The notes: a model not told the origin generated them from the sequence alone. Shown: positions 26,082 to 54,818, counted from the stretch's first letter. The stretch is DNA of 54,818 nt from a virus (IMGVR_UViG_3300037833_000027:1-54818), one strand, 5' to 3'. A program made the numbers and translations.

Positions 26082-26418
26082 CAGTGTCACCCGAAGTGTG
26101 ACTCGGCTGCGCATCGACGTGCGGCTTGAGTTCCCCCGCATTTCCCACCGTCCCCGCATCGACCCCAACATCAAGAAGGCCAACGACAAGGCCCGCAACA
26201 GGCGCTGGCAGATCGCCAACAAGGCGAAGCTCGCCCTCTGGGCACGGCTCAACCGTGCCAAGAAGCGGGCGGCGACGTGTGAGCACTGCGCCCCGCCCTC
26301 CCCGCAGCATCAGGCCGCAGCCTACGCCCGGTGGGGCAAGCCCACTGCCCAGACCAAGTAACCCCGCTCCGAGGCCACACGCCACCTTGGCGTGTGGAAC
26401 CGTTTTGACAAGGAGGCC

Positions 26419-26625
26419 ATGACCATGCCCGACCGCGACACTCCCGCAACCGAACTAGCCGCCCTTGCAGATGGGTTGATCGACCAGACCGCCAGCGAGA
26501 TCGGCAGCGACGACCCCGAGGCCGTGGCCGACCAGTTGAAGGCCGACCTCGACCAGTTCCCCGAGCACGCCGTGACGATTCGGGCGGCGCTTGAACGTCT
26601 CAAGGTCAAAAGCGTGTCGGCCTAA
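26419..26625 (+). CDS. Small hypothetical phage protein
   Basis: ATG with aaggagg RBS. Confidence 0.6.
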   Translation: MTMPDRDTPATELAALADGLIDQTASEIGSDDPEAVADQLKADLDQFPEHAVTIRAALERLKVKSVSA

Positions 26626-26784
26626 GTCGTCATCGCGGGCATAGTCGATGAGACCTACATGCCCGCGACGTGCGGGCAAAACGGCAGTCTGCAAAACCGC
26701 CGAGCCGAGCAACCAACTATGAGCCGACAGACCTGAACGGACTGCCGACATAATCTTCATCGCGCTCATGGCGATGGTTGCTCC

Positions 26785-26826
26785 GACTCGGAAGGGCTTG
26801 CAGACCCCTTCCGAGTCTCTTTTTTT
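26785..26826 (+). terminator. Intrinsic terminator or attenuator upstream of replication genes
   Basis: 12 bp stem gactcggaaggg/cccttccgagtc followed by a T run. Confidence 0.75.
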
Positions 26827-26837
26827 GGAGCACACAC

Positions 26838-27074
26838 ATGCAACAGCATGAACCGACCGAGACCGAATACTTGGACGCGATCCTCGCCGTCGAGAAGATC
26901 GGCGAGATCATCGCGGAGTTCTCCCGCACCACGTCGCAGTGGACCGACTTCCGCGACAACCTCTTCGACCGGCTCGCCGAGATCGTGGCCGAGCACCGCA
27001 CGGGGTGCGACACGTTCAACCGGATCGACCGCATCATCACCGCCATCACCACCGGCGATATGGAGGGCAAGTAA
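26838..27074 (+). CDS. Small hypothetical phage protein
   Basis: ATG with ggag RBS; stop abuts next start. Confidence 0.6.
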   Translation: MQQHEPTETEYLDAILAVEKIGEIIAEFSRTTSQWTDFRDNLFDRLAEIVAEHRTGCDTFNRIDRIITAITTGDMEGK

Positions 27075-28790
27075 GTGGCCCCCATCGACCCCGAAACACA
27101 GAAGGCCGAGGACTGCTTCCTCCAACTCGTGACTACCGACCGCGAGGCGTGCGCCCGGTGGGTCGAGACGAACGACCCGCCCGTCGAGAACTTCCACGAG
27201 AAGCACCGCAGGCTGGCGGGGAACGTCTACGAACGCTGGGAGAAGCATCAAGCCCTGTACACCCGCGAGGCCGCGAACGAGGACGCCGAGGCCCTGCCGA
27301 GGCGGGAGCGGATCGGCTACCTGTCCGCGTTCTCCGGGACCAAGTTCGTTGACACCCGCGTCAAGAAAGACAACCAGCCGACCTACGCCGCCGCCGTCAA
27401 CGAGGCGGCGAGGAAGCGGGCGACCCTCGCCGCCGTCGAACTGATCCGGGAGGGGAAGGCCGTCGAGGCAGCCGAGGCCATCCTCTCGGCCGCACGCCCC
27501 GAGCCACCCAAACCGCAGGAGCGCCCGCCCCTGTCGTTCGACCTGTCCCGACTCCCCGCGAAGCTCGTGAAGGGGTTTGCGGGGTTGACCCGGTTGAACC
27601 CCCTGTTGTCCGCAAGCGGGCAGATCATGGTTCCGTTCGCCGTCGCGGGCACGATCATCGGGAAGCGAATGGAACTCGACAACTTGTGCAACCTGTACTA
27701 CCCGAACATCTGGACAGTGGTCATTGCCCCAACCAACAGCAACAAGACGGGAACCCGCAACCTAGTTCTGCGGTCACTCCCGGACCACTTGAAGTTGCCC
27801 GACTCCCCGACGTGCGAAGCCCTGATTGACCGGATCGGCGGCACGTTCAAGAAGGAATCGGGTGAAGAGCTTACCCTCGCCCTTGCCGCAGCCGCGACGG
27901 CCAGCAGGGCGAACCTCAACGGCGGGTGCATCGTGGCCGACGAGGTGACGGGGACGCTCCGCAAGCTGATCGGCGAGCCGATGGGGAACGGCAAGGGGGA
28001 GCAGAACTTGGAGACCGTGTTGAAGCTCGCCACCTCGGGCGAGTCTATCGAGCAGCCCCGGACCACGGCGGGCCACCGTGCCGCCTACGACTGTTGCGTG
28101 AGCCTGATCGGGTTCACCCAGAACGACACGTGGCAGGCGTGCTACGGGGACGACAAGTACCGTTCGGTGGGGTTGATCGGCCGCATCATCACCTGTTGCG
28201 ACGGGTTGCAGTTCACCAACATGCCCGAGGCCGACAGGGACGACTGGACCGCGTTCGTAGCCGCCGTGTCCAACATGGGCGACCCGTTCGACGAGGCGGA
28301 CCACCGCGACCACAGGAACCGTGCCGTCATCACGGCCGAGAACGACAGCATCGGCCCCGTCATGCGGGAGATCAAGAAAACGCCCGCGTGGGAGGCGTTG
28401 CGCTACGCCGTGGGCGACTACTCGGACAGCCTCTATGGGAAGGTCATCGCTCAGGGGGCCAAGCTCGCGATGGTGTGCGCGTGGATCGAGCGGACAGGCC
28501 CCGCCAAGTGGCTCGCGGCCTGTTGCGAGCTTGTGGCCTGCTGCTGGGCCAACTACTTCACGAGGACGGCGGGCAGCACGGCCAAGCTGGGGGCGAGGGA
28601 CTACGCCGCCCTCGTCTACATCAGGGAGAACCCCGGTTGCACGCCCAACCAGTTGCGAAGGAAGCTCAGCCTGCGGGACATGCGGGAGGTGTGGCTCATC
28701 GTCGGCACGTTGGAGGAAGAAAACCTCATCGAAGTCAGGGAGGGCAAGCGTAAGGACAGCCCCGCCCTCTTCGCCAAGAGAGTGGCGTAG
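27075..28790 (+). CDS. DUF3987-family replication protein (P-loop, C-terminal winged helix)
   Basis: YYPNIWTVVIAPTNSNKT Walker A-like, SPTCEAL, CIVADEV, SLIGFTQ, GLIGR. Confidence 0.75.
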   Translation: MAPIDPETQKAEDCFLQLVTTDREACARWVETNDPPVENFHEKHRRLAGNVYERWEKHQALYTREAANEDAEALPRRERIGYLSAFSGTKFVDTRVKKDNQPTYAAAVNEAARKRATLAAVELIREGKAVEAAEAILSAARPEPPKPQERPPLSFDLSRLPAKLVKGFAGLTRLNPLLSASGQIMVPFAVAGTIIGKRMELDNLCNLYYPNIWTVVIAPTNSNKTGTRNLVLRSLPDHLKLPDSPTCEALIDRIGGTFKKESGEELTLALAAAATASRANLNGGCIVADEVTGTLRKLIGEPMGNGKGEQNLETVLKLATSGESIEQPRTTAGHRAAYDCCVSLIGFTQNDTWQACYGDDKYRSVGLIGRIITCCDGLQFTNMPEADRDDWTAFVAAVSNMGDPFDEADHRDHRNRAVITAENDSIGPVMREIKKTPAWEALRYAVGDYSDSLYGKVIAQGAKLAMVCAWIERTGPAKWLAACCELVACCWANYFTRTAGSTAKLGARDYAALVYIRENPGCTPNQLRRKLSLRDMREVWLIVGTLEEENLIEVREGKRKDSPALFAKRVA

Positions 28791-28833
28791 ACCGGGCGCA
28801 CAACTGGTGGACAGGCAGACAGAGAGGCCCATC

Positions 28834-28880
28834 ACGGGGGTTTCAACAGGCAGGACTCTGCCGGTTGAGACCCCCGTTTT
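28834..28880 (+). terminator. Long hairpin with T tail after the replication gene
   Basis: acgggggtttcaacaggcag/ctgccggttgagacccccgt followed by ttt. Confidence 0.65.
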
Positions 28881-28899
28881 GCTAGTTGCTACGCCAGTC

Positions 28900-29050
28900 G
28901 ATTTTGACCCCAGATATGCTGTATTTCATAGGGATATTAGTAGTAGTAGAGGAGTAGTAGTATTAACAGGTGTAAGAGGTGTATCCCTTCCTGCTACCCT
29001 CTGAAAGCTGACTTCCCTTTCTAGGCCCCCACCTGTTCTCCCTGTTCCAC
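28900..29050. other. Candidate phage replication origin
   Basis: AT-rich stretch with (tag)n runs and aacagg/cctgtt repeats directly after the replication gene. Confidence 0.45.
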
Positions 29051-29113
29051 TTGTTGACCGTTAATTGCGTGTCCGAGGCATCCCAGAGACGGGGGCGCGT
29101 CGATGAACTAGAC

Positions 29114-29374
29114 ATGACCCAACACGAACGAGACCTCACCTACTTGACCCGACACGGGGCCACCGTTCCCCCTCGCCCGCAGAAGCCCGCTAGTCGCTCA
29201 CAGTGGGCCGTCTGGCGCTCCGAGGTGTCCAGAGCCGCTGACGAGCTTTGCGAGGCTCTTATCGAACGGGAAGAGCGGGAAGAGGCCGCGTGGTTGGAAC
29301 TGCTGAAGAACTCGGAACCCGTCCACCGCAAGTGGGTTCGCAACCGACGCACAACGGTAGGAACCGGTCGATAG
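29114..29374 (+). CDS. Small hypothetical phage protein
   Basis: MTQHERDLTYL... ORF between the origin candidate and HNH-AP2. Confidence 0.45.
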   Translation: MTQHERDLTYLTRHGATVPPRPQKPASRSQWAVWRSEVSRAADELCEALIEREEREEAAWLELLKNSEPVHRKWVRNRRTTVGTGR

Positions 29375-29382
29375 GTGATAAC

Positions 29383-29928
29383 GTGAGCAGCGACTACATC
29401 AAGAAAGTTCCCGACCGCAACGTCTACCAGCCCGACGCCAACGACCCGAGCTTGACCCGCCTCGTCATCACCCGGAACGACGGCAGCCAGTACACGGTGA
29501 TGCTCGACACGGGCGACGTGGCGAAGGTCCGCCGCCACGTCTGGCGCGTGCAACCGTACTTCCACGGCCAGTACGTCTACCCTTGCACGGGCACGGCGGG
29601 GGCGATGTTTTCGGTGGGCCAGTACCTGCTAGGACTAGGACCGGCAGACCCCGACAACCGTTGCGCCGCGTACCGCGACCGCGACGGCATGAACTGCCGC
29701 CGGTCCAACCTGTTGATCGCTTCACGTAGCGAGATCAAGCGCAAGGCGAAGCTCCCCCCGAACACCAGCAGCGGCGAGCCGAACATCTTCCGGTTCCCGA
29801 ACGGCAAGCGGTTCAGGGTGAACATCCAGCACCGGGGGCACCTCTACGTGTCCACCCACACCAGCCTTGGCGAAGCCGTCGCAGCCCGTGACGCCATGAA
29901 GGCCAAGCTCTTCCCCGACGCCGCCTAG
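29383..29928 (+). CDS. HNH-AP2 domain protein, probably catalytically degenerate
   Basis: MLDTGD..KV....W, DGMNCRRSNL, NTSSGEPNI...FRVNI...EAVAARD. Confidence 0.7.
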   Translation: MSSDYIKKVPDRNVYQPDANDPSLTRLVITRNDGSQYTVMLDTGDVAKVRRHVWRVQPYFHGQYVYPCTGTAGAMFSVGQYLLGLGPADPDNRCAAYRDRDGMNCRRSNLLIASRSEIKRKAKLPPNTSSGEPNIFRFPNGKRFRVNIQHRGHLYVSTHTSLGEAVAARDAMKAKLFPDAA

Positions 29929-30067
29929 GAATTGAAACTCGGATGGTCGATAGAGAGAACGTCGCCACTCGCCGTGGCAGGTCTTCCCACGGTGGCGATG
30001 TTGTGCTCAGCGCCCGCCCTCGCGCCCTAACGCGAGGGCGGGTTCGTTTCGATGGGCAGTCAGACCA

Positions 30068-30150
30068 CCGGGGGAGGGTTCCTAGGAAAAGGGCCGGGAA
30101 CGGAAGACCGAACGACGCCTGTTCGCCGTTTTTGAGCCACTTTTGAAGGA
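30068..30150. other. Candidate cos packaging site
   Basis: ccgggggagggt...agaccg...cctgttcg...ttttt in the intergenic gap upstream of the packaging operon; resembles 3'-cos regions of HK97-like phages (inference). Confidence 0.35.
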
Positions 30151-30180
30151 ACCCGGTATCCCCCGCTTGAACCACTAGGC

Positions 30181-30987
30181 ATGCGAGTCGCGGTTCAGAC
30201 CACCACGCTCCCGAGGGAGCAAATCTACTGGCTTGAAGAGTGGGTCAAGTACCACCTGTGGCTCGGGTTCGACCACGTGTTCATCTACGACAACACGGGC
30301 AGCGTGGCCTACGAGTACAGCGCGTTGTTCGGGCAGCCGACCGTCACCACGGACGGCCGCAACTACAAGGGCCACGAGATCAGGGCAATGACCGGCCACC
30401 TCACCGATGCCGACGTGGCCGACATCGTGAAGCAGATCGGGGAGAAGTACGCCGGGCGGGTGACCATCACGCCGTGGTTGCCGCTTAACGCGGAGGGGAA
30501 GCCCTTCTACGGCCAGACGGCCGCGATGGAACACTTCCTCGTGAACCACGGGCCGCACTACGACTGGGTGTTGTTCGTGGACCTCGACGAGTACCTCGTG
30601 AACCCGGACTGGCGGACGTGGTTGGAGCACTTCGAAGCCCACGGCCGCAACGAGGTTCTCGTCGGGGCGAAGTTGTTCCGGGAGCGCATCACCGGGGCGG
30701 TCCCCACGATCCCCACCCAGAGCATCACCCAGAGCTACCCCGACCACTGGGACCGGCAGCCCAAGCGGTTCGCGAAGTGCGCCGACGTGATCCAGCCGGG
30801 AGTTCACTACGGGGGCAAGTGGAGGCAGTACCACCCCGCCCACGACACGTGCCTTTACCTCCACCACTACCGAGTGGAGCGGCGGCAGGAAATCACCCGC
30901 ATGGAGCATGACGACACGCTCGCGAAGATCATCCCCGAACTGCGGCTTGACGGTTGCGTGCCGGTGCCGAGGAAGGCCACGGCGTGA
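30181..30987 (+). CDS. GT-A glycosyltransferase (GT92/GT2-like)
   Basis: LEEWVKYHLWLGFDHVFIYDN, Q, WVLFVDLDEYL (DxD), HHY. Confidence 0.85.
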   Translation: MRVAVQTTTLPREQIYWLEEWVKYHLWLGFDHVFIYDNTGSVAYEYSALFGQPTVTTDGRNYKGHEIRAMTGHLTDADVADIVKQIGEKYAGRVTITPWLPLNAEGKPFYGQTAAMEHFLVNHGPHYDWVLFVDLDEYLVNPDWRTWLEHFEAHGRNEVLVGAKLFRERITGAVPTIPTQSITQSYPDHWDRQPKRFAKCADVIQPGVHYGGKWRQYHPAHDTCLYLHHYRVERRQEITRMEHDDTLAKIIPELRLDGCVPVPRKATA

Positions 30988-31778
30988 GTGACCCGCTTGC
31001 GAACCTGAAGGCGTTCGACCCCGCCAGCTTGCCCGACGTGTCGCTCTACACCGCCGACATGCCCACCCACGACGAGTGGGCAGCGGAGGTGCCGCAGCCG
31101 TTCGACGACGTGCCCGACTTCGACCCCGAGGCCGACCCCGAGGTGAACGTCAACCGGCAGTTGTCGGGCGACAAGACCTACACCCGGTTGCCGGTGCGCC
31201 GCCTGTTCATCGACTACCGCGAGAACCCGGAAGCCTACAGGCACATCGCGCACCTGCCCGCCGAAGGGGAGGACGTGGAGATGCTCATCTCCGGCAGGTA
31301 CGCCATGTGGGAACTTGTGCCCTCGCTCATCGTGAAGACGGGCCAGAACATCGACACGTTGACCATCGCCACGTTGAGCTACAGCAAGCAGAACGCGGCC
31401 GAGCTTCTGGGGCTACTGGATGACGGGCGGATCGGGCGGTGTGGGTTGCTCGTGAGCTACTTTTTTAAGGCCCAGAACCGCCCGCTTTACGACAGCCTCG
31501 TGCCGGGGTTGCGGGAACGCGGGTGCAAGGTGTTGGCCATGCGGACGCACGCGAAGGTGTTCCTCGTGAAGATGGTTGACGGCACGTGCTACGTGATCCG
31601 GGGCAGCCCGAACATGCGCTCATCGAAGAACTTCGAGCAGTTGACCATGAGCCGTGACGCGGGGCTTTACGAGTTCTACGCCAAGTGGATCGAAGGAGAG
31701 CTACTGCACGGCGTGGAACTAGGTAAGGATGCCGACGAAGAAACAGACAGAGACAAAGCGACCGACACCGCCCCCTGA
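30984..31778 (+). CDS. Phospholipase D-fold (single HxK) phage protein
   Basis: LTIATLS, RTHAKVFLV, GSPNM...NFEQ. Confidence 0.75.
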   Translation: MSDPLANLKAFDPASLPDVSLYTADMPTHDEWAAEVPQPFDDVPDFDPEADPEVNVNRQLSGDKTYTRLPVRRLFIDYRENPEAYRHIAHLPAEGEDVEMLISGRYAMWELVPSLIVKTGQNIDTLTIATLSYSKQNAAELLGLLDDGRIGRCGLLVSYFFKAQNRPLYDSLVPGLRERGCKVLAMRTHAKVFLVKMVDGTCYVIRGSPNMRSSKNFEQLTMSRDAGLYEFYAKWIEGELLHGVELGKDADEETDRDKATDTAP

Positions 31779-32103
31779 GATCGAGGGTGAGGCCCTACTC
31801 GAATGGGACCGGTGTTGCGAAGAGCTTGAACAACTGGGGCGACTGAACACGGTGGACCGGGGGATTCTCACGGTTCACTGTCAAATCTACGCAGCAAATC
31901 AGGCCGCATTTAAGCACGTGGCGCAGTGGGGGCCGGTGTTGAAGGCCGCGAACGGCGTGGTGGGACAGGGGCCGTTCTGGAAGACCATGAAGGACGCCAC
32001 CGCCCTGTTGCAGAAGAGCTACGCCGAACTCGGACTCACCCCGAAAGCTCGTGGGTTCGACGCCAACCAAAGGGATGACGAGGGCGACGACCTCGACTTT
32101 TAG
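31729..32103 (+). CDS. terS: Terminase small subunit (P27 family)
   Basis: PP...EALLEW...L...VD..IL..HC...ELGLTPKAR. Confidence 0.88.
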   Translation: MPTKKQTETKRPTPPPEIEGEALLEWDRCCEELEQLGRLNTVDRGILTVHCQIYAANQAAFKHVAQWGPVLKAANGVVGQGPFWKTMKDATALLQKSYAELGLTPKARGFDANQRDDEGDDLDF

Positions 32104-32105
32104 AA

Positions 32106-34004
32106 GTGGCAGAGACACCCGACGAGAAACACAAGGCCGCACGCAACGCCTACTACGACCAGCACGCCCGAGACCCGGACGCGAAGCGCTTCTACAACAG
32201 CGCGGCATGGAAGCGGGCACGGAAGGCGAAGCTCGCCCAGTACCCCGTGTGCCAGCGATGCGAGAAGGTGTTCGCCGAGCACGTTCACCACGTCATCCCC
32301 CTGAAGGATTGCACCGACGCCCAAAAGCTCGACCCCGGCAACCTGTTCAGCACGTGCGCCCCATGCCACAACATCATGGAGGCCCAGACGCAGAGCGCCG
32401 CCGCCCTCACGGTGTCGGGCACGCTCGTGGTGGCCGAGGACGAGAACTACTTCTACGACGCCGAGGCAGCCGAGAAGCCCGTCCGGTTCATCGAAACCTA
32501 CTGCCGCCACTACGAGGGCCTGTTCGCCGGGCAGCCGTTCACCCTGTTGGACTGGCAGAAGAGCATCATCCGCACCCTGTTCGGGTGGAAACACCGGGGG
32601 ACGGGACTACGCCGGTTCAGGGAGTTGTGGCTTTTGACGGCCAAGGGTGCGGGCAAGACGCCCATGCTCGCCGCCATCGCCCTCTTCATGCTGCTAGGAG
32701 ACGGGGAAGCGGGCGCTCACGTCGTCAGCATGGCCAGCAGCTTCGAGCAGGCCAATCTGACGTTCGACGCGGGCAAAAAGTACATCGCGCAGAACCCCAA
32801 GTTGTCCAAGGCCTGTGAGTCGCAGCAGTTCGTCATCAAGGGGCCGAAGTTCGGCAAGTGGACGACGATCTCCGGGAAACCGAACGGCAGATCGGGGCCG
32901 CGCCCCTCGTGCATCATCGCGGACGAGGTTCACGAGTGGCCCACGGGCACCGACAAGGCCTACGACCTGTTGACGGCCAACTTGTTCAAGCGGTCGCAGC
33001 CCCTGTTGCTCGTGGCCACGAACGCCGGGGCCGACCGCACCGGGTTCGCGTGGCAGTTGCACGAGCGGGCCATGAACGTGTTGTCCGGGAAGGTGACGGA
33101 CGACACGTTGTTGCCGGTCATCTACGAGGCCGACAAGTCGCTCGACTGGCGCAGCGAGGAAGCCGCCAAGGCCGCTAACCCGTCACTGGGCGGGTTCGTC
33201 AGGTTCGAGCAGTTGCAGCCGGAGCAGTTGAAGGGCGAGGCCCGCTACCGCCGCCTGTACCTGTCGCAGTGGGTGACGGGTTCCGACAAGGCGTTCGACA
33301 TGGAGTTGTGGGACTCGTGCGCCGCAGACCTCGACCACGGGAAGTTGAAGGCCCTCCCCCTCTACGTCGGCATCGACGCCAGCGCCGGTGACGACCTGTT
33401 CGCCGTCACCCACGTCTGGGTGACCCCGGAGCGTCACTACGTGGATGCCCACTTCTTTCTCCCCAAGGTGACGGCCCAAAAGTACGAGGACAGCCACCGC
33501 ATCCCGTTCACCCGGTGGGCGGAACAGGGGCACATCACCCTGTTGGACGAGCCGACCATCAACCACGCCGTTCGCCAGCGAATTGCGGCCGAGATCATCG
33601 CCACGAGCAAGGTGAACCCGGTTTTGAAGCTCGGCTATGACCGGGCATGGAAGGCCGACGAGGTGGTGGCCACGGTCGCGGCAGCGGGCATCGAGTGCGA
33701 ACCCATCGGGCAGGGCTGGGGCGTGTGGGAAGGCAGCCGCGAGCTAGACAACCGGTTGAAGGAGAAGGCCGTCACCGTGAGCCGGAACCCCGTGCTGCGC
33801 TGGTGCGCCGAGAACACGGAGTGGGAGCACGGTAAGCACGGGGGGTTCTGGCCGGTCAAGCCCAACGCAAAAGGCAGTTATGCGGGAAGGAGATCGGCCA
33901 AGATCGACGGAATTAGCGCACTGGTGACCTGTCTGACGGAAGCACGGAAGCACGCTTTCCCGAAGACCCAACAGCAATGGCGGGGGACGATCCATTTTGC
34001 ATAA
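32106..34004 (+). CDS. terL: Terminase large subunit with fused N-terminal HNH endonuclease
   Basis: N-terminal FYNSAAWKRAR...PVCQRC...VHHVIP...NLFSTCAPCHN; then LLDWQ, AKGAGKT, IADEVHEW, GIDAS, GYDR, KIDGISAL. Confidence 0.92.
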   Translation: MAETPDEKHKAARNAYYDQHARDPDAKRFYNSAAWKRARKAKLAQYPVCQRCEKVFAEHVHHVIPLKDCTDAQKLDPGNLFSTCAPCHNIMEAQTQSAAALTVSGTLVVAEDENYFYDAEAAEKPVRFIETYCRHYEGLFAGQPFTLLDWQKSIIRTLFGWKHRGTGLRRFRELWLLTAKGAGKTPMLAAIALFMLLGDGEAGAHVVSMASSFEQANLTFDAGKKYIAQNPKLSKACESQQFVIKGPKFGKWTTISGKPNGRSGPRPSCIIADEVHEWPTGTDKAYDLLTANLFKRSQPLLLVATNAGADRTGFAWQLHERAMNVLSGKVTDDTLLPVIYEADKSLDWRSEEAAKAANPSLGGFVRFEQLQPEQLKGEARYRRLYLSQWVTGSDKAFDMELWDSCAADLDHGKLKALPLYVGIDASAGDDLFAVTHVWVTPERHYVDAHFFLPKVTAQKYEDSHRIPFTRWAEQGHITLLDEPTINHAVRQRIAAEIIATSKVNPVLKLGYDRAWKADEVVATVAAAGIECEPIGQGWGVWEGSRELDNRLKEKAVTVSRNPVLRWCAENTEWEHGKHGGFWPVKPNAKGSYAGRRSAKIDGISALVTCLTEARKHAFPKTQQQWRGTIHFA

Positions 34005-36151: not shown

Positions 36152-36227
36152 TCGTCGGCAGAGTTTCGACGCCCCCAGTGGCAGGAAGGACGGCATCGAC
36201 ATCAAACCCAAAAGGGGGAATCCGCTC

Positions 36228-37424: not shown

Positions 37425-37452
37425 GCCAGCCGGAACCCACATCAGAGTCACG

Positions 37453-37487
37453 CCACTGGGGCGGTTAACAGCCGCCCCAGTGGTTTT
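37453..37487 (+). terminator. Intrinsic terminator after capsid gene
   Basis: ccactggggcgg/ccgccccagtgg stem followed by tttt. Confidence 0.8.
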
Positions 37488-37518
37488 CCGAGTCTCGTCA
37501 GGAACTAGGGGGCAGCAA

Positions 37519-37758: not shown

Positions 37759-37759
37759 C

Positions 37760-39128: not shown

Positions 39129-39132
39129 GAAA

Positions 39133-46243: not shown

Positions 46244-46267
46244 CGAAGACGCAAAGGGGGCGGGGAA

Positions 46268-47641
46268 ATGCGACCGGAAGACGTTTCAGAAGTCCACATC
46301 ATCAACTTGAAGACGAGGCCAGACCGTTGGGTCAACCTCACGTCCGCAATCGACAAGTGCGGGTGGCCCTTCCCCCAGCCGCAGCGGTTCAGCGCCGTCA
46401 GCGGCGACAAGGTGGGCGTCCCCGGTGACTACGCCTACCAGTACGGGGGCCGCGACATAGGCGCACGCGGGTTCTACGAGGGCGGCGGCGCGTTCGGGTG
46501 CAAGCAGTCTCACGTTGCTATCTTGCAGGACTGCTTGATGCGGGACGTGCCGTCCGTGTTGATCCTAGAAGATGACGCGCTCATCGCCCCGGACTTCGGA
46601 CAGCAGGTTCGGCAGTTCCTAGCAGAAGTCCCCGACGACTGGGAAGGCATCATGCTTGGAGGGCAGCACCACGCCGACCCCTCGACCATCGGGCCGAACG
46701 TGGTGAAGGTGAACTACGCCCAGCGCACCCACGCCTACATCGCCCGTGGCGAGTACATGCGGGAGTTGTACCGCCGGTGGGTTCACGCCGGTGCCCACGT
46801 TGACTGGTTGATGGAGAACTGGCAGCACACGCAGCGGGTCTACGCCCCGGTGAAATGGCTCGTGGCGCAGGCGGCGGGGAAGAGCGACATCAACGGCCGC
46901 ACGAACCCCGCCCAGAGTTGGAACGACCCCACGGGCGAGGAACCGGTCATCCACTTGCGAGCGCCCCGACACGTGGCGGAAGAGTTGCGGTTGTGGGGAC
47001 TCCACTACGGGTTCGACCGCGACCCGGAGACGGGAATCGACAAGGGGCTGACGCACGTGATGGCCAGCGGGAACGCGGAGAAGAGCGCCCCGCTTCGCAA
47101 CTGGGTGGCGACGATCCAGCGGGAGGCCATCAGCACGCCGGGCACCGTGGCCACGGTCTGGCACCCCGAGGTGACGACAGAACTCGCACGGCGGGCCGTG
47201 CCCGCCATCGCCAAGGTCTACAACATCGACGCGGACAACATCGCCGACGCCGTGGCCCAGTTGCCCCCCGAGTTGAACCTCGTGCGAACCACCACGTTCG
47301 CCCACCGGTTCACCGTGCTGTTGCGGTCATCTAGGGCCGTGATGGAGCAGTTGCGCGGCCACGGGTTCCACACGGGCTACTGGCGAGGCGGGGACGGCAT
47401 CGACAACGGCTTGAGGGACGTGATGGACTTGCAGGGGCCACCACGGGCCGACGCCCTACGCCAGTGGTGCGCATCGCTCGCCAGAGAGGCCGAGACGATC
47501 CACGAGGGCGTGGTCACTGTGTGGCATCCAGAGGCCACCAGAGAAGAACTAGAGGCCGCTACGGGCCACGCCGTGTTGGAGATCGCCGCCACGAGTGCCG
47601 ACGAGGTGTTGAACGCCTTCCAGCGACAGGTGGCCGCGTAA
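46268..47641 (+). CDS. GT25-like glycosyltransferase with tandem duplicated C-terminal domain
   Basis: IINLKTRPDRW, RFSAV.G, GC..SH, VLILEDDA, DW..IMLGG, THAY. Confidence 0.85.
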   Translation: MRPEDVSEVHIINLKTRPDRWVNLTSAIDKCGWPFPQPQRFSAVSGDKVGVPGDYAYQYGGRDIGARGFYEGGGAFGCKQSHVAILQDCLMRDVPSVLILEDDALIAPDFGQQVRQFLAEVPDDWEGIMLGGQHHADPSTIGPNVVKVNYAQRTHAYIARGEYMRELYRRWVHAGAHVDWLMENWQHTQRVYAPVKWLVAQAAGKSDINGRTNPAQSWNDPTGEEPVIHLRAPRHVAEELRLWGLHYGFDRDPETGIDKGLTHVMASGNAEKSAPLRNWVATIQREAISTPGTVATVWHPEVTTELARRAVPAIAKVYNIDADNIADAVAQLPPELNLVRTTTFAHRFTVLLRSSRAVMEQLRGHGFHTGYWRGGDGIDNGLRDVMDLQGPPRADALRQWCASLAREAETIHEGVVTVWHPEATREELEAATGHAVLEIAATSADEVLNAFQRQVAA

Positions 47642-47652
47642 CAGGGGGAGCA

Positions 47653-48972
47653 ATGCAGCGAACGGACATCATCAACGAGTTGATCGCACGCCGGGGGTTC
47701 ACGTCCTACCTCGAAATCGGCGTGAGGGACGTGGCAGCGAACTTTAACCACATCCGTGGCCAGAACAAGGTGGGCGTTGACCCGTCCCCCGACGTGTCCG
47801 AAGGCGTGACGCACCTAGTCACGTCCGACGTGTTCTTCGCCAACAACGTGCAGAAGTTCGACCTCGTGTTCATCGACGGGTTGCACACCGAGGAACAGGT
47901 GGGCCGCGACATCGACAACGCCTTGAAGGCCCTCAACCCCGGCGGCGTGATCGTCGTTCACGACGCCCTGCCGCCCACGGCGTGGCACCAGCGTGACCAC
48001 TACGACGGGCAGGACTGGACGGGGACAGGTTGGAAGGCCGTGGCCAAGGCGTTCGCCACGAGCCGCAGCCGGTGTTACGTGGTCGATGGCGACTGGGGGT
48101 GCGCCGTCATCGACACGGGCAGCCCCGTCGCCCACCGCTACGCGCCCGAGACGCCCCTCGACTACGACCGGGACTTCCCGAGCTTCCGGCAGACGTTCGC
48201 CGTGACGCCGGAACAGTTCACTGAGGGCCTGAGCACCGGCCCGCAGGCGAAGCCCAAGCGGGTGAGGATGTTCGTCTGGACGCCGGGGCACATCGCCATG
48301 AACCTGCACACGGAGATGGTCCGGGTTCAGAGCCTCGTGGCCCGCCGCCTACGCCGGGCGATGCCCGACGTGGAGTTCGTCCACGCGCTCGTGTGCGACC
48401 GGATCGACGAGCCGCAGGTGGAGGCCGTCAGGGAGATCGGGAAGGACTTCGACCAGTTCCACCACGGCATCCCGCCCGAGTACGGGCAGGCGTGGGGGAT
48501 TCGCAAGCCCACCCACTACGCCCTCGACCTTGCCAGAGCGGCCGGGTGTTCCCACATGCTCCGCGTCATTCAGGACACGTTCATCATGGACGTGGCCAAG
48601 TTCGCCGCCGACGTGGGCGAGGTGTTGAAGACGCCGGGCGACTGGTTGGGGGCCAACCGCCACGACTGGGAGACGGACGGGCACCGCAGCGTGTGCGAGG
48701 AAATGGGCATCCCGTTAAACACCAAGTTGCGTTACCCGAACGGGGCCGTGATGGTCGCCCCGTTGGCGACGTGGCAGCGGTTTTACGTGCCGATGCCCGC
48801 GAGGATCAACCACTACTGGGACGACATCATCATGGGCGAGTGGATGCTCCACGCGGGGGCCACGCTCGTGGACCTGCCGACGACGTGGGCGCACTTGCAC
48901 GACAGCCGCCCCGAGGTGAGCCGCAGCCACTACGAGGCCCACGCCGCCGAGCTTGCGACACACCCCACCTGA
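47653..48972 (+). CDS. Class I SAM methyltransferase (Methyltransf_24-like) fused to a possible GT-A-like domain
   Basis: SYLEIGV, GVDP, TSDVFF, FDLVFIDGLH, GGVIVVHD; C-terminal IQDTFI...NGAVM...DDIIMG. Confidence 0.8.
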   Translation: MQRTDIINELIARRGFTSYLEIGVRDVAANFNHIRGQNKVGVDPSPDVSEGVTHLVTSDVFFANNVQKFDLVFIDGLHTEEQVGRDIDNALKALNPGGVIVVHDALPPTAWHQRDHYDGQDWTGTGWKAVAKAFATSRSRCYVVDGDWGCAVIDTGSPVAHRYAPETPLDYDRDFPSFRQTFAVTPEQFTEGLSTGPQAKPKRVRMFVWTPGHIAMNLHTEMVRVQSLVARRLRRAMPDVEFVHALVCDRIDEPQVEAVREIGKDFDQFHHGIPPEYGQAWGIRKPTHYALDLARAAGCSHMLRVIQDTFIMDVAKFAADVGEVLKTPGDWLGANRHDWETDGHRSVCEEMGIPLNTKLRYPNGAVMVAPLATWQRFYVPMPARINHYWDDIIMGEWMLHAGATLVDLPTTWAHLHDSRPEVSRSHYEAHAAELATHPT

Positions 48973-49142
48973 GGCCCACCCTGTGGCGCTGTGCCTGAAC
49001 AGTCTGACGACGGCGTAGCGTGTTGGCCAACATGAAGTTACGCGAGTTGTGGACCGTCTGATCCCGTACGCCCGCTTTCTTGCGTACCCCATCGCCCCGG
49101 ATAGGATGGTCGGCTGTCATGCGGGGAGGCGTCGGAACAAAA

Positions 49143-51593
49143 ATGGCCAAGCTCAGCCGTCAGCAAATCGAGGAAATTAAAGCGCTTCTGGACGCCGGGC
49201 AGGAGCTTGGCGAAGAGCACCTAGACCTCCTGTTACCAGCCGAGCGACGGCGAGAATACGAGCTTGTATATGCGGGCAAGACCAGAGCCGAGGCCGTTCT
49301 CTCCGACACGTGGAGCGTCCCTCTTCAGCCCCTCAAGACGTTCGGCGTGCCCAAGGGGCAGGCCAGCCCCGAGTGGACAAACCGCCTGATCTTCGGGGAC
49401 AACCTTCAGGTTCTGAAGCGGCTGACGGACGACCCGGCCGTCGCTGGCCGGGTGAAGCTGGTCTACATCGACCCGCCCTTCGCGACCATGCAGGAGTTTC
49501 GGGGGAATGAGGAACAGAAGGCGTATCAAGACAAGATCGCCGGTTCGGCCTTTATCGAGTTCCTTCGGAAGCGGCTGATCCTGCTGCGTGAGCTTTTGCA
49601 CCCGAGCGGGGGCATTTACCTGCACTTGGACACCCGGAAGTCGCACTACCTAAAAGTCGTGATGGACGAGGTGTTCGGCGAGAACAACTTCCAGAACGAA
49701 ATCGTCTGGCGGAACACGAACACGCACAACAAGGCGCAGACCTTCGGTGAGATTCACCAGAACATCCTGTTCTACTCCAAATCTTCCGCCCTCGACTTCC
49801 ACAAGCTGAAAAGGCCACGGTTCAAGAAGTACGTCGAGCAACGGCACCGCTTTACCGATGACCGAGGGACTTACCGCTCATCCGACCTGACCGGCGAGGG
49901 CACCCGCACGGGCGACTCGGGCAGAAAGTGGCTCGGCTACGACCCCACGGCGGCGGGCAGACACTGGGCCATCCCTAGCTACGTGTATGACCTCATCGAC
50001 GAGGACATTTCTCATCTCCCTCTCTTGAAGAAGTTAGATTACCTGCTCGAACACGAACTCGTCATCCCGCCGTCGAAGCCCGGCGGTCAGCCGTCGATCA
50101 AGCGATACCGGAATGAAGATGATGGTTCCTTTGTGCAGGACATCTGGTCATATCAGCCGTACACGGAGGGCATCTACGCCAACAGTAAAGAGGCCATCGA
50201 CGAGGACGTGATTTACAGGGTGGGGCCGAAGGAGCATACCGGCTACCCCACCCAAAAGCCCGAGGGACTGTTGTCCCGGATCATCCGCTCTTGCACCACG
50301 GAGGGCGACCTCGTGCTCGACGCTTTTGGCGGATCGGGCACCACAGTGGCCGTGGCTGAAAAACTGGGCAGGCGGTGGATCGGGATCGACTGCGGCAAGC
50401 TCGCGATCTACAGCATCCAGAAGCGGCTGCTGAACCTGAGCACCGAGGTGGGCGGCAAGGGGAAGCCACTGCCGCCGCAGCCGTTCACGCTCTACAACGC
50501 CGGGCTGTACGACCTGCCGAGGATGCGGGATTTGCCTTGGGATGACTACCGCACCTTCGCCCTTCAACTCTTCCAAGTTCGTCACGAGCCGCACAAGCTA
50601 GGCGGCATCGCACTAGACGGGTTCAAAAGCACCGGGGACGTGCTCGTCTTCAACTTCCAGCAGAACGCCGGTGTTCAGCTTGACGAAGAGTACGTGCGGG
50701 AGTTGCACCGCCACCTAGGCGGACGCACGCGCGACGAGTTCTACATCATCGCCCCCGCCTCGCGCGTGACGTTCCTAGAGGACTACATCGACATCGACGA
50801 GACCCGGTACTACTTCCTGCGCATCCCGTACTCGATCATTGACGAACTACATGACCGCCCGTTCCGAGAGATTCGTCAGCCGATCAACGAAAAGGAAGTG
50901 AACGCCACCGTCGAGGCTGTCGGGTTCGACTTCATCCAGCCCCCGAGGCTGAAGGCCAGCTACGCCTACGAGAAGCCCGAACAGGAACTGTTCGGGGCTG
51001 CGACCATCCTCATCGAAGAGTTCCACAGCGAGGCGATGCTAAAGCGAGACCGGGAGTACGAAAACCGGGAGACGCTTTCGATGGTGATGGTGGACTACGA
51101 CTACAAGGGGAACGGCGAGGGCACGTTCGAATTGGACCTCGTGCTGTACCGGCACGAGATCGAAGAGGCGGGGTGGAAGGTGCGGTTGAACCCGAACAGC
51201 ATCGCCTCTCGGGTTATGATTATTTACATCGACATCTTCGGTAACGAACTCAGAGAGGTGAAGACACCGAACGACTTCGGCATCACGGAGTTGCCGAACG
51301 CGAAGGACGTAGACGCTGAGGGCACCGGGGACGTGGGCGAGCCTGTTGACGACGAGGACGATGACGACCGGGCAGGCGCGGGCGAGCCGGAGGCCTCAGG
51401 TCAGATGCGCCAGCGGAAGCCGAAGTCGAAGCCCACCAAAGCCGCAGCCAAGTCCGGCAACAACGGGAACGGATTGCACCGCAAGAAGCCAATCCGGCGA
51501 GCCAAGGTCAAACGGTCGCCGTTGCCGAAGCCGTCCAAGCAGAAGAAGGCGTTGACGAAGAGCGTATCGAGGAAGGCCACATCTCGAAGGTAG
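49143..51593 (+). CDS. mod: Type III-like R-M methyltransferase (beta class)
   Basis: LIFGDNL, YIDPPF, YPTQKPE, LDAFGGSGTT, WIGID. Confidence 0.9.
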   Translation: MAKLSRQQIEEIKALLDAGQELGEEHLDLLLPAERRREYELVYAGKTRAEAVLSDTWSVPLQPLKTFGVPKGQASPEWTNRLIFGDNLQVLKRLTDDPAVAGRVKLVYIDPPFATMQEFRGNEEQKAYQDKIAGSAFIEFLRKRLILLRELLHPSGGIYLHLDTRKSHYLKVVMDEVFGENNFQNEIVWRNTNTHNKAQTFGEIHQNILFYSKSSALDFHKLKRPRFKKYVEQRHRFTDDRGTYRSSDLTGEGTRTGDSGRKWLGYDPTAAGRHWAIPSYVYDLIDEDISHLPLLKKLDYLLEHELVIPPSKPGGQPSIKRYRNEDDGSFVQDIWSYQPYTEGIYANSKEAIDEDVIYRVGPKEHTGYPTQKPEGLLSRIIRSCTTEGDLVLDAFGGSGTTVAVAEKLGRRWIGIDCGKLAIYSIQKRLLNLSTEVGGKGKPLPPQPFTLYNAGLYDLPRMRDLPWDDYRTFALQLFQVRHEPHKLGGIALDGFKSTGDVLVFNFQQNAGVQLDEEYVRELHRHLGGRTRDEFYIIAPASRVTFLEDYIDIDETRYYFLRIPYSIIDELHDRPFREIRQPINEKEVNATVEAVGFDFIQPPRLKASYAYEKPEQELFGAATILIEEFHSEAMLKRDREYENRETLSMVMVDYDYKGNGEGTFELDLVLYRHEIEEAGWKVRLNPNSIASRVMIIYIDIFGNELREVKTPNDFGITELPNAKDVDAEGTGDVGEPVDDEDDDDRAGAGEPEASGQMRQRKPKSKPTKAAAKSGNNGNGLHRKKPIRRAKVKRSPLPKPSKQKKALTKSVSRKATSRR

Positions 51594-51603
51594 GGAGGGG
51601 ACC

Positions 51604-54138
51604 GTGAAGGACACTACCCAGTACAAGCACGAAGACTTGGTTCTCAAGGTCACGCCGAACATCGACCCGGCCAAGTTCGACATGAACAGGTTCGAGCCGT
51701 TCCTCGACAGCATTTCCGGTGACCGGGAGTACCAGAAGGCCACGATCCGCACGGTGTGCAACTACCTCTTCGGCGAAGCGTACCCGAACCTGCGGGCACT
51801 GGCCGGGCAGAATTACAAGGCAAACCCGGTGCTCCGCGAGAAGTACCCGACGCTGGCCGCGTTCGAAGCACAGCTTCAGCTACCGGAGCAGTTGGCGTGT
51901 TCCGTGGACCTCGCGACGGGGACGGGGAAAAGCTACGTCATCTACGCCATCGCCCGCATCGCGTTGGCGGCGGGCAAGGTTGACCGGGTACTAGTCCTCT
52001 GCCCGTCCAACACCATCGAGGCCGGGCTGCTCGACAAGTTCCATGCCGAGTCGAAACAGCCGGACCACACCGACGTTCTACCGGCGGATTCGGTCTACAA
52101 GGTTCCCCACGTGACCAACGCCACGGAGACCGTGCTCCCCGGCGGCGTTTGCATCGAGAACCGCCACGCGGTCTACGCCGGAACGAAAAGCGCTATCGAG
52201 GATTCGTTCAAGGGCATGGGTGACCGCACGCTGGTGTTGTGTGACGAAGCGCACCACATTTACACCCCGGAGCAGGAAGGCCTGCGGCGATGGAAGGAGT
52301 TCCTGCTTTCCCCGGAGTACGGGTTCCGCTACGTGGTCGGGTTCTCCGGGACGTGCTACGTCGGGAACGAGTATTTCACTGATGTGGTGGCCCGCTATCC
52401 GTTGCGGCAGGCCACCGATGACGGCCGTGTGAAGCAAGTCGAGTACACGGTGGACAACGGCACCAACGACGCACGGGAGAAGCTACAGCAGATTTACGAG
52501 AACCACCTCGACAAGCGGAAGAAGTACAAGCTCGTCAAGCCGGTGACCATAATCATCACTCGCGACATCCCGACGTGTAAGCGGCTCACGGACGAGTTGA
52601 TCGAGTTCCTCGCCGAGCAGGAAGGCATCACCGAAGATCAGGCAGCCGCGAAGGTGATGCGAGTTCACACGAAGCGAGGGTCGGGTCAAGGCGCTAAGGA
52701 AGACGCCCAAATCCCATTGAACTTGGCGAAGCTCCGCGCTGGGGAACCGGACCAGAAGGACAGCCCTGTCGAGTGGATTACGTCGGTCAGCATGTTGACC
52801 GAGGGCTGGGACGTGAAGAACGTGTTCCAGATCGTCCCGCACGAAGAACGTGCGTTCAATTCCAAGTTGCTGATCTCCCAAGTGCTCGGACGCGGGCTGC
52901 GGGTTCCACCCGAGTTCGCCGGTCAGAACCCGATGGTGACCGTGTTCAACCATGCGAAGTGGAGCGGGCGGATCAAGGAACTCGTGGAAGAGGTGCTCGA
53001 AGAGGATAAGAAGGTCACTTCCGCCGTCGCCAAGAAAGACCCTGCCTTTGACTTCTCGTTCCACCACATCGACTACGAGAAGTCTCAGCAGATTACCGAG
53101 ACCAAGCAGGAGTCCGAGTACAACTTCGACATGCCCTACGTGAACCTCGCCGTTCAGCGGAAGGTTCTGGATCGGCAGACGGTCTACGAGGCGGCGCTCA
53201 CCAGCCAGCGGCGCAACAAGACGACGGCCGTGCGGATCGAAATGTATTCCGTCGAGGAGGTGGTCAACGCCGTCTACAACAAGTTCAAGGCCATCGACCT
53301 TGAGGAACAGACGGAGTACGCCAAGAAGATGCCGAAGGACAAGATTCGGAACTTGATCCGCGCGTCCCTCGACCAGATCAAGTACGACGGGAACGACGTG
53401 AGCAAAGAGAACAAGCAGCGAATCCTGTCATCGTTCGGCAACCTGAAGCGGGCGGGGAGCAAGAGCATTCGTTACAAGGTCGAGGCCACGAACGTGCGGC
53501 CGATGAAGGCGTCGGGCCGGGGCGTGGAGAACGTCAGCACGTCGATGTTGCGGAGGGGCATTGCGACCGTCTTCTATGACGACCAGTCGAAGACGTTCGA
53601 CCCCGTGCTCGCACAGGTGATCGGGGAGATCGAAGACCAGTTTTCCGACCTGCCGAAGTCAGCCGGGTACAGAGTGCCGAACTCGTTCCTGTTCAAGACG
53701 TGCCTCTCCGTGGCCGTCACCGTGGGCGACCCGGAACGCAGGTTCCTTTACAAGCTGGTTCAGGCCGAGAACGCCGCCAAGATCGACGGTTGGCTGAAGA
53801 ACACGGACAGCGGGTTCTACGAGATCGAGTACTCGTACTCCCGTGGGGACTATTCGCGGCGCGGCATGTTCAACCCCGACTTCTTCATCAGCATGGGCAC
53901 CGACGTACTCGTCGTCGAAATCAAGGAAGACGACGAGGCCAAGAACCCGTCACCCGAGAACGCGGGGAAGCGGCGGGCAGCCGAGACCCACTTCGAGTTG
54001 TTGAACCAGTTGCAGGGTGAGATGAAATACCACTTCTGCTTTCTCACCCCGAGCGACTACGACCTTTTCTTTGCGGAGCTACGGGAAGGACGCGCCATGA
54101 CCTTCCGCAGCGGCTTGGACGTGGAGTTGATGAAGTGA
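51604..54138 (+). CDS. res: Type III-like restriction helicase-endonuclease
   Basis: LATGTGKS, DEAHH, LTEGWDV, QVLGRGLR, FNPDFFI...VVEIK. Confidence 0.9.
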   Translation: MKDTTQYKHEDLVLKVTPNIDPAKFDMNRFEPFLDSISGDREYQKATIRTVCNYLFGEAYPNLRALAGQNYKANPVLREKYPTLAAFEAQLQLPEQLACSVDLATGTGKSYVIYAIARIALAAGKVDRVLVLCPSNTIEAGLLDKFHAESKQPDHTDVLPADSVYKVPHVTNATETVLPGGVCIENRHAVYAGTKSAIEDSFKGMGDRTLVLCDEAHHIYTPEQEGLRRWKEFLLSPEYGFRYVVGFSGTCYVGNEYFTDVVARYPLRQATDDGRVKQVEYTVDNGTNDAREKLQQIYENHLDKRKKYKLVKPVTIIITRDIPTCKRLTDELIEFLAEQEGITEDQAAAKVMRVHTKRGSGQGAKEDAQIPLNLAKLRAGEPDQKDSPVEWITSVSMLTEGWDVKNVFQIVPHEERAFNSKLLISQVLGRGLRVPPEFAGQNPMVTVFNHAKWSGRIKELVEEVLEEDKKVTSAVAKKDPAFDFSFHHIDYEKSQQITETKQESEYNFDMPYVNLAVQRKVLDRQTVYEAALTSQRRNKTTAVRIEMYSVEEVVNAVYNKFKAIDLEEQTEYAKKMPKDKIRNLIRASLDQIKYDGNDVSKENKQRILSSFGNLKRAGSKSIRYKVEATNVRPMKASGRGVENVSTSMLRRGIATVFYDDQSKTFDPVLAQVIGEIEDQFSDLPKSAGYRVPNSFLFKTCLSVAVTVGDPERRFLYKLVQAENAAKIDGWLKNTDSGFYEIEYSYSRGDYSRRGMFNPDFFISMGTDVLVVEIKEDDEAKNPSPENAGKRRAAETHFELLNQLQGEMKYHFCFLTPSDYDLFFAELREGRAMTFRSGLDVELMK

Positions 54139-54260
54139 CCCCGCCATGCCCACCCAAGCCCTGATCCACGTTATCGAGCAATTTGGCTACGCCGTCCGCA
54201 CCAGCGCGATGACGGGCACCGACCGTTTACAAAACTAAACGGCGGTGTATAGCTTTCTAA

Positions 54261-54818
54261 ATGGAGTGCGACTTCAGCAAGCTGGTGCGGGACCGGATAA
54301 CCGACGTGGGCATGTCGCAGGCCGATCTGGCCAAGGCTCTCACGGGCACGGTCACGAAGGCCGCACTGTACTCGTTCCTGAAGGGCGAGTCCGGCCTGAA
54401 CTCGAAGCGGCTGGCCAAGGTGTTCGAGGTGCTGGCCATCGAGGTGCGTCCGAAGCCTCGCCCCGAGACGCCCGACCGCCACCTCGACACCACGGACCTG
54501 TTGAAGCGGGCGAGGGACTACCTCCTGACCGCGAACGACGAGCAGCGGAAGGTTTACCTGATGTGGCGTGCCGGGCAGTGCATCGCCGAGGCACGCCACC
54601 AGTGCGGCGGGGACTGGCCCGAGGTCTGGGACGCCCACGCCCCGCAGTTCGTGGACGCCCGGCTGATGCAGTACGCCGAGGGGGCGCTCCTGATGGCCGA
54701 CAAGTGCAAGGGCGAGTACGAGATTCGCAAGTTCCACAAGCTCGGCGATGCGCTGACGAACTACGAGATCACGAAGGAAAAGGTCAACGGCAAGTACATC
54801 CGCCGCGTGCGTAGGTAA
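54261..54818 (+). CDS. XRE-family HTH protein (possible phage regulator)
   Basis: GMSQADLAKAL...VTKAALYSFLKGES.L....LAKVF.VL. Confidence 0.75.
   Translation: MECDFSKLVRDRITDVGMSQADLAKALTGTVTKAALYSFLKGESGLNSKRLAKVFEVLAIEVRPKPRPETPDRHLDTTDLLKRARDYLLTANDEQRKVYLMWRAGQCIAEARHQCGGDWPEVWDAHAPQFVDARLMQYAEGALLMADKCKGEYEIRKFHKLGDALTNYEITKEKVNGKYIRRVRR

Follow-up and report, generated by a model that had tools for sequence, protein, structure and literature searches.

The window analysed here is a stretch of 54,818 bases, filed as viral by its source (IMGVR_UViG_3300037833_000027:1-54818), and its right part, from 26090 to the contig end at 54818, is, to judge from its gene content, most of an HK97-like siphovirus prophage (Caudoviricetes), which abuts a remnant of the host gene comM. 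The palindromic hexamers of this element are depleted far beyond chance. A preliminary description, made from the sequence alone, had proposed that the prophage was purged of many restriction sites by synonymous codon choice, its own restriction-modification (R-M) genes included. The left part (1-25574) serves as the comparison region, although this 25.6-kb “host” reference is a patchwork of mobile elements, and not core chromosome.

The prophage and its junction with comM

The features of the purged region and of the DNA immediately to its left are the following.

23008-25371, convergent: orthodox type II R-M pair, adjoining the comM remnant on its left and not purged (Pfam Eco57I/N6_Mtase)
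23008-24495, + strand: type II N6-adenine methyltransferase of this pair (Pfam Eco57I/N6_Mtase)
24484-25371, - strand: type II endonuclease of this pair (PADLOC REase_II PDLC03405, E 6.6e-43)
25575-26087, + strand: internal remnant of comM (AAA+ Mg-chelatase domain only), at the left prophage junction (Pfam Mg_chelatase, E 1.9e-66)
26090-54818, + strand: purged region, with all genes on the + strand, running off the contig end
27075-28790, + strand: DUF3987 protein (primase/helicase-like) of the early module (Pfam PF13148, E 1.1e-07)
29248-29928, + strand: HNH endonuclease (PHROG 99, E 1.7e-12)
30181-30987, + strand: glycosyltransferase, GT92/GT2-like (Pfam PF01697, E 2.2e-12, and PF13704)
31729-32103, + strand: terminase small subunit, TerS (Pfam Terminase_4, E 1.4e-17)
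32106-34004, + strand: terminase large subunit, TerL, with an N-terminal HNH domain in the same open reading frame (ORF) (Pfam TerL_ATPase, TerL_nuclease, HNH)
33997-35538, + strand: portal protein (Pfam Phage_portal, E 2.5e-72)
35522-36151, + strand: prohead serine protease, S78 (Pfam PF04586, E 4.8e-24)
36228-37424, + strand: major capsid protein, HK97 type (Pfam Phage_capsid, E 1.3e-06; 43% identity to the capsids of the related loci L001 and L027)
40675-42975, + strand: tape measure protein (Pfam TMP_3, E 2.9e-29)
43848-44834 and 44735-46243, + strand: two Ser/Gly-repeat proteins, probably of the distal tail or of a fibre (repeat families D1 and D2; codon-position GC pattern)
46268-47641, + strand: glycosyltransferase family 25, GT25 (Pfam PF01755, E 1.4e-09)
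47464-48972, + strand: Methyltransf_24-domain protein (Pfam PF13578, E 4.8e-12)
49080-51593, + strand: type III-like mod methyltransferase (Pfam N6_N4_Mtase, E 3.8e-44; PADLOC models MTase_III and MTase_II)
51604-54138, + strand: type III-like res helicase-nuclease subunit (Pfam ResIII, E 1e-11; PADLOC REase_III, E 3e-14)
54261-54818, + strand: HTH protein, a possible repressor, with its ORF running off the contig (Pfam HTH_3, E 6.9e-4, below the curated cut-off)

The tailed-phage modules are confirmed by the Pfam matches, which bears out the earlier identification of a prophage, and the genes for TerS, TerL, the portal, the S78 protease, the HK97-type capsid, and the tape measure protein follow one another in the canonical order along 31729-42975. 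No integrase is found among the Pfam matches in 26090-54818, where the element is cut off by the end of the contig, and the right boundary of the purged region likewise lies beyond this end. The HNH domain of TerL occupies residues 49-90, while in the genome G081 and in the metagenome contig L027, HNH and TerL are encoded in separate frames, adjacent or overlapping. At the distal end of the tail genes, the Ser/Gly-repeat proteins are weakly similar to a part of L027 located downstream of its own tape measure gene. A frameshift at 44390-44735 was considered and rejected, given that Ser/Gly codons read in the 43848-44834 frame account for the codon-position pattern. These proteins, with their AGC/GGC codon repeats, adjoin the GT25 and Methyltransf_24 genes, and the cluster as a whole (43848-48972) might, speculatively, be involved either in the glycosylation of tail fibres or in the modification of the host surface. 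Farther downstream, a mod gene with an N6/N4 DNA methyltransferase domain is followed by a res gene with a ResIII domain, which is the domain arrangement of a type III system, and the best PADLOC match of mod is the MTase_II model. The AT skew of the element (26001-54818) is strongly positive (+0.11 to +0.24 per 2 kb), the coding strand being much richer in A than in T, as against about -0.05 in the left part.

The comM remnant shares 77-80% identity with the ComM of a metagenome-assembled genome (MAG) of the Tepidisphaerales, over residues 341-521 of a 614-aa ComM-frame ORF, with both the N-terminal and the C-terminal parts missing, and the strong similarity stops near 26085. The remnant ends at the junction and a single contig spans this junction, as expected of an insertion into a host gene; overall, comM appears to have been interrupted twice, at separate positions and by different mobile elements. 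A search of the Atlas with the remnant recovered only generic Mg-chelatase clusters, without useful taxa.

The assembly of the junction is real. A contig of 69,818 bases, produced by a second assembler from a public run labelled algae metagenome, which is probably the source sample and thus does not provide independent data, covers positions 20000-34000 without differences and at an even word depth of 75.8, reaching ~3.6 kb past the left end of the window and ~11.4 kb past the right one. For the type II endonuclease to the left of comM, the search for a specificity returned no solved structure and 1275 homologues, of which the 120 listed are all unnamed or “hypothetical”. A protein identical to this endonuclease is encoded on a contig of 284,936 bases, which fits a chromosomal setting.

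Elimination of short words from the prophage

The expected number of each word was derived from a codon-preserving shuffle (n = 500), in which the synonymous codons are permuted within each gene, leaving the proteins, the codon usage of each gene, and the non-coding DNA unchanged. The genes were called by the periodicity of the GC content of third codon positions (GC3), and the shuffled codons make up 92% of the bases on the right and 81% of those on the left. This is the comparison of the two parts that had been suggested as a check, and its outcome is clear, with counts far below expectation in the right part and normal in the left. The right part contains 135 hexamer palindromes against 428.7 expected (sd 17.2, minimum 383 in the 500 shuffles), and 45 of the 64 palindromic hexamers are absent from it, compared with a mean of 13.2 and a maximum of 19 in the shuffles. 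In the left part, by contrast, 584 hexamer palindromes were observed against 604 (sd 18.9) in the shuffles, with 10 of the 64 absent, against a shuffle mean of 7.7. Nulls based on the base composition and on a maximal-order Markov model give the same picture.

The eight words that had been reported missing by eye do indeed have no copy in 26090-54818. The numbers expected here, followed by the copies present in 1-25574, are 68 and 59 for CCWGG, 26.9 and 59 for GCCGGC, 21.7 and 51 for CCGCGG, 15.5 and 12 for GAGCTC, 11.0 and 27 for GTCGAC, 9.7 and 4 for CTCGAG, 9.3 and 15 for CAGCTG, and 5.6 and 4 for CTGCAG.

The loss extends well beyond this list. Among the 617 distinct recognition sites of the REBASE-derived list in Biopython, 32 of the 524 with an expectation of at least 5 in the right part are at zero, whereas only one of 525 is in the left. 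The zeros include, in addition to CCWGG, the degenerate words GRGCYC (47 expected), RGATCY (18), and RGGWCCY (16), the interrupted words GACNNNGTC (12) and CCTNNNNNAGG (10), and the non-palindromic words CAGCTC (24) and CTCCAG (15). In a screen of all hexamers, reduced to 2080 strand-symmetric classes, the 45 strongest depletions listed comprise 15 palindromes and eight words containing CCWGG, and the remainder are other non-palindromic words; CAGCTC (25 expected), GGAGCC (17), and CTCCAG (15) are at zero in this screen. Grouped by the authors across the shuffle, the hexamer screen, and the REBASE results, these losses correspond to approximately 27 independent eliminated words.

The elimination of these sites is all-or-none, and not graded. 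The ratio of observed to expected counts (O/E) of the 111 palindromic REBASE sites with an expectation of at least 8 is bimodal, with 19 at zero, an empty interval from there to 0.1, and most sites at 0.7-1.3, while the left part has no zeros. Some palindromes are kept at or near their expected numbers, such as CGGCCG (31 observed, 33 expected), TGGCCA (28 and 19), CACGTG (19 and 16), TCGCGA (11 and 14), and ACCGGT (7 and 9), and GCCGGC, CCGCGG, GGCGCC, and GACGTC are at zero while other GC-rich palindromes stay. None of the four-letter palindromes is absent from the right part, and by the authors' own arithmetic the loss of the hexamers suffices to explain the modest deficits in their numbers.

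The possibility that the losses amount to a few degenerate specificities (GRCGYC, CYCGRG, CMGCKG, GDGCHC, GGNNCC, and others) was rejected, given that in these families the palindromic members alone are depleted. In GRCGYC, CYCGRG, CMGCKG, GDGCHC, GGYRCC, and GWGCWC, for example, the depletion comes solely from the strictly palindromic words, and the only degenerate sites that are fully at zero are GRGCYC, RGATCY, and RGGWCCY. When two inverted half-sites of three letters are considered, the O/E is 0.32 with no gap between them and 0.83-1.08 at gaps of 1-9, and the only gapped zeros that are independent of the words already purged are GACNNNGTC and CCTNNNNNAGG. As the deficit is confined to the ungapped form and specific words are kept, a general aversion to inverted repeats is ruled out, and the signal fits selection on specific recognition words.

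The purge is uniform along the element. The words absent from the right part have 383 copies in the window, all of them at or before position 25866, followed by none over 28,952 bases, while the largest gap between copies elsewhere in the window is 505 bases. Given that this list was defined on the right part itself, it was cross-validated by leaving out each of 11 blocks in turn, with the words learned outside the block and counted within it, which gave no copy in nine blocks and a single copy in two, against 9-54 expected. The purge was said to run on through mod and res, and it does, with no copy in either gene against 39.4 and 39.9 expected, respectively. The same is true of the two glycosyltransferase blocks, that is, none against 19.7 in the GT92/GT2-like block and none against 48.9 in the other, and of the non-coding DNA of the right part (1546 bases), which contains no copy of an avoided word, against ~17 expected from its own composition.

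The three copies of CTCGAG that had been noticed in the comM fragment lie at 25638, 25845, and 25866. The last of these is also the last avoided word of the window, while the comM homology ends near 26085, so that the left edge of the purge and that of the element agree within ~220 bases, as the earlier description had anticipated. The all-or-none pattern of words thus locates the left boundary of the prophage to ~220 bases without any annotation of genes.

The role of the rare codons is less strict than was first supposed. Such codons had been described as lying at precisely those positions where the preferred codon would give rise to a site, and they are enriched at these risk positions, but this is not a rule, with 82% of the non-preferred codons lying elsewhere. 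A codon at a risk position is non-preferred by construction, and the measure adopted was therefore the share of each rare codon located at such positions. This share, compared with that in the shuffles, is 55% against 25% for CTT, 52% against 9% for TCA, 42% against 21% for CAA, 39% against 25% for TTG, and 35% against 18% for ATT, an enrichment of 1.5-5 times in these five codons, and 24% in both cases for CTA. For all non-preferred codons, it is 18.2% against 15.1% (maximum 16.4% in 40 shuffles). Some words are also enriched over the codon shuffle in 26090-54818, such as GAAC/GTTC (503 against 350), CACG (580 against 467), CAACAG (37 against 13), and AACTAG (11 against 3.8), and these are probably by-products of the replacement of GAG, CAG, CTC, and CTG by GAA, CAA, and CTA beside risky neighbours.

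Relatives of the element and known cases of avoidance

The element has no close relative among named phages, with the best portal match below 31% identity in 50,697 phage records, and neither a search of viral contigs with the portal nor one of metagenome contigs with the capsid recovered a relative. A portal relative at 39% identity was found in the Tepidisphaerales MAG whose ComM matches the remnant, and TerL relatives in 35 of 401 sampled genomes of the same class (Phycisphaerae), a sampling centred on the genome that holds L001; overall, the natural relatives are 37-57% identical. The TerL of L027 is 57% identical to that of the element, with synteny from TerS to the distal tail, and the Phycisphaerae prophages and L027 share with the element a syntenic TerS-to-tail module, with TerL 54-57% identical. 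These similarities suggest that the host is probably a bacterium related to the Phycisphaerae/Tepidisphaerales (Planctomycetota).

Prophage-side stretches and distant host stretches were taken from seven of the 35 genomes, chosen as the best matches on long contigs, and the O/E of their hexamer palindromes was calculated from the base composition, as it was for the element, T7, and phiC31 in the comparisons below.

L027: prophage side 0.40, without a host control
G129: prophage side 0.55, host 0.89
G236: prophage side 0.55, host 0.81
G271: prophage side 0.60, host 0.70 (barely below host)
G081 prophage 2: prophage side 0.63, host 1.04-1.06
G384: prophage side 0.73, host 0.85 (barely below host)
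G088: prophage side 0.93, host 0.97
G267: prophage side 1.15, host 0.84
G081 prophage 1: prophage side 1.18, host 1.04-1.06

A marked but weaker purge is thus present in four of the nine related stretches (L027, G129, G236, and the second prophage of G081), with the host DNA flanking the latter three at 0.81-1.06, whereas three of the nine (the first prophage of G081, G088, and G267) have no purge. The word sets also differ in part, given that the relatives lose AGGCCT, CCTAGG, CACGTG, AGCGCT, or CGTACG, all of which are kept by the element. The O/E of the element, 0.25, is the lowest among 50 phage-like loci compared, each at least 4 kb long, a set that includes six exact duplicates between collections and leaves out the host controls, 20 short TerL-centred loci, and the loci below 4 kb. 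In one Phycisphaerae genome (G081:C20, 226-284 kb), two related prophages (L066 and L067) lie ~20 kb apart, both with a TerL 54% identical to that of the element, yet with a palindrome O/E of 1.18 in one and 0.63 in the other.

The avoidance of restriction sites by phages is textbook knowledge. Coliphage T7 is the textbook case, going back to Sharp in 1986 and to earlier mapping work on T7, and the classic studies of the phenomenon are those of Sharp, of Gelfand and Koonin, and of Rocha and colleagues. Like the element, T7 has lost many six-letter palindromic type II sites (O/E 0.42, 19 of 64 absent), although the phage is virulent and the element integrated, and the purge goes further in the latter (O/E 0.25, 45 of 64 absent), in which five-letter, degenerate, interrupted, and non-palindromic words have been lost as well. 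The actinophage phiC31, which is also a temperate HK97-like siphovirus with the same GC content (63.6%), lacks some sites too, with 6 of 32 words with an expectation of at least 5 missing, including CTCGAG, CTGCAG, GAGCTC, and GGATCC. In this case, however, there is no global purge, with a palindrome O/E of 0.96 and 17 of 64 absent. The breadth of avoidance initially described as unusual does, therefore, exceed that of both T7 and phiC31.

According to a survey of prokaryotic viruses (Rusinov et al. 2018, PMC6286503), the sites avoided are those of orthodox type II systems, and about one genome in ten shows complete or nearly complete elimination, which is found mainly in non-temperate phages and much more rarely in temperate ones. 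The element differs from this general pattern in being integrated and yet extreme, although comparable cases may be listed in the survey's supplementary tables. The plasmids studied by Shaw, Rocha and MacLean (2023, PMC10359461) avoid 6-bp type II targets, and more strongly so when their host range is broader. As in the element, the composition of mobile DNA is tuned against 6-bp targets, but the plasmids are described there in terms of statistical under-representation, and not of the near-total elimination found in the phage. In the open-access literature that was searched, which provided general surveys only, no planctomycete case of such a purge was found.

Restriction as the probable selective agent and its alternatives

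Under-representation against a codon-based null, specificity for words like those of type II enzymes, and all-or-none elimination are among the marks of restriction-site avoidance, and all three are found in the element, which is an extreme case of a known phenomenon, unusual in degree and not in kind. The explanation preferred here, with a probability of roughly 0.8, is that the lineage was selected to lose every copy of ~25-30 short words, which would be the recognition sequences of orthodox type II enzymes, with the restriction enzymes of past and present hosts probably acting as the selective agent. On entering a new strain that carries the enzyme, a single unmethylated site would suffice for cleavage, so that only the complete loss of a word would protect the phage, and words would be either eliminated or left untouched. 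The losses would have been reached mainly through synonymous codon choice, with the non-coding DNA covered too, and each phage lineage would carry its own list of words. As the mod/res and glycosyltransferase genes are also purged, they would have shared the history of the phage for long enough to undergo the same process.

A number of results weigh against this explanation. An integrated phage with such a loss is atypical according to the survey cited above (PMC6286503), and the window contains neither an integrase nor a second attachment site, so that the temperate status of the element rests on its insertion in comM. No cognate restriction system was identified for the purged words, and the contig carries a single type II system. 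The proposal that the pattern records the R-M repertoires of the hosts stays conjectural, as a test of word usage in class-level relatives of the host found no link. In this test, which is a weak one for that reason, 34 hexamer palindromes (25 purged or nearly purged and nine kept) were compared in eight host stretches totalling 160 kb from seven genomes, and the medians of the Markov O/E were 0.78 for the purged words and 0.81 for the kept ones (Mann-Whitney p = 0.64); the same test against the left flank of the window gave p = 0.94. Finally, 55 of the 101 genomes sampled from the class have C5 methyltransferases, which gives no sign of an exceptional richness in R-M systems, although a census of one methyltransferase family is uninformative about breadth.

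It is quite conceivable, if still the less probable case, that the signal is historical, that is, that the purge was accumulated in many past hosts, or inherited from a virulent or broad-host-range ancestor, and that the list of words does not match the systems of the present host. The different purged sets of the related phages and the lack of correlation with word usage in class-level hosts are both consistent with this, as is the number of words, ~25-30 being more than one genome usually encodes, together with the observation that plasmids of broader host range avoid more targets (PMC10359461). The results apply equally to past and to present hosts, however, and the proposal is best regarded as a refinement of the preferred explanation.

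The alternative that one or a few defence nucleases of broad specificity, directed for example against palindromes of the form G-N4-C, replace the ~25 type II systems is improbable. The 16 palindromes that begin with G and end with C do total only three copies against ~147 expected, by the authors' own sum, with 14 of the 16 absent. No single rule describes the losses, however, as purged words (such as CCGCGG, CTCGAG, and CAGCTG) have cores and outer bases in common with kept ones (such as CGGCCG, CACGTG, and CCTAGG). Nor does the depletion of the degenerate families go any further than their palindromic members, and the sets of the relatives differ. No nuclease is known to recognise palindromy itself over six base pairs.

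It is very unlikely that the whole 54.8-kb record is a single element with a recently acquired left half as its early or lysogeny arm, in which case the boundary of the purge would be internal. This is suggested by the integrase fragments, large serine recombinase, primase-polymerase, and methyltransferases of the left half, and by the filing of the whole record as viral, but a comM remnant with 80% identity to the ComM of the Tepidisphaerales sits between the halves, and the left half, with its insertion sequence (IS) fragments and a GC content that ranges from 58 to 74%, is a mosaic of several elements. A bias against inverted repeats that is unrelated to restriction, whether mutational or structural in origin (hairpins, cruciforms, or packaging), would explain why most of the lost words are palindromes, but is largely refuted, and hardly credible, given the depletion of contiguous hexamers only, with gaps of 1-9 at 0.83-1.08, the presence of CGGCCG at expectation, the all-or-none distribution, and the loss of non-palindromic words. 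Least credible of all is an artefact, either a chimeric assembly or bacterial DNA fused with a sequence that is synthetic or recoded. The very sharp compositional switch and the viral filing of the record might speak for it, but it is opposed by the even depth at which the second assembler's contig crosses the junction, even if it probably comes from the source sample, by the normal order of the phage genes, by the natural relatives in Phycisphaerae genomes and metagenomes, and by the retention of common cloning sites (ACCGGT, CCTAGG, GCATGC, and AGGCCT).

Given selection by type II restriction as the preferred explanation, a broader proposal may be put forward tentatively, and with less than even confidence. 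The tailed phages of the Phycisphaerae may use the elimination of six-letter type II sites as a main anti-restriction strategy, even when temperate, with each lineage maintaining its own list of words, and these lists may preserve, like a fossil record, the type II pan-repertoire of a clade that is uncultured and associated with algae, as well as providing a sharp marker of the boundaries of active prophages, with the present element as the most extreme case so far. The interest of the case lies in so extreme a purge in an integrated phage from a phylum for which few phages have been described. Should the word lists of the element and its relatives prove to match the restriction systems of the host populations, the restriction repertoires of uncultured bacteria could be deduced from the phage sequence alone, and temperate phages would be seen to face a restriction pressure as strong as that acting on virulent ones.

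The left part of the window (1-25574) contains fragments of tyrosine integrases and of IS4/5 elements, together with a ResIII helicase, in DNA of 58 to 74% GC. A high-GC island (67-74%) at 6900-19000, which is rich in the words that are missing from the prophage, includes DUF6884, DUF429, and Dam-class methyltransferase genes, and is probably a separate integrative element. The methyltransferase lies in a block of 70-74% GC, together with a large serine recombinase (783 aa) and a primase-polymerase-like protein (833 aa). The C-terminal tyrosine-integrase fragments at 1-483 and 1781-2056 share a 162-nt repeat (324-485 and 1897-2058) with 90% identity.

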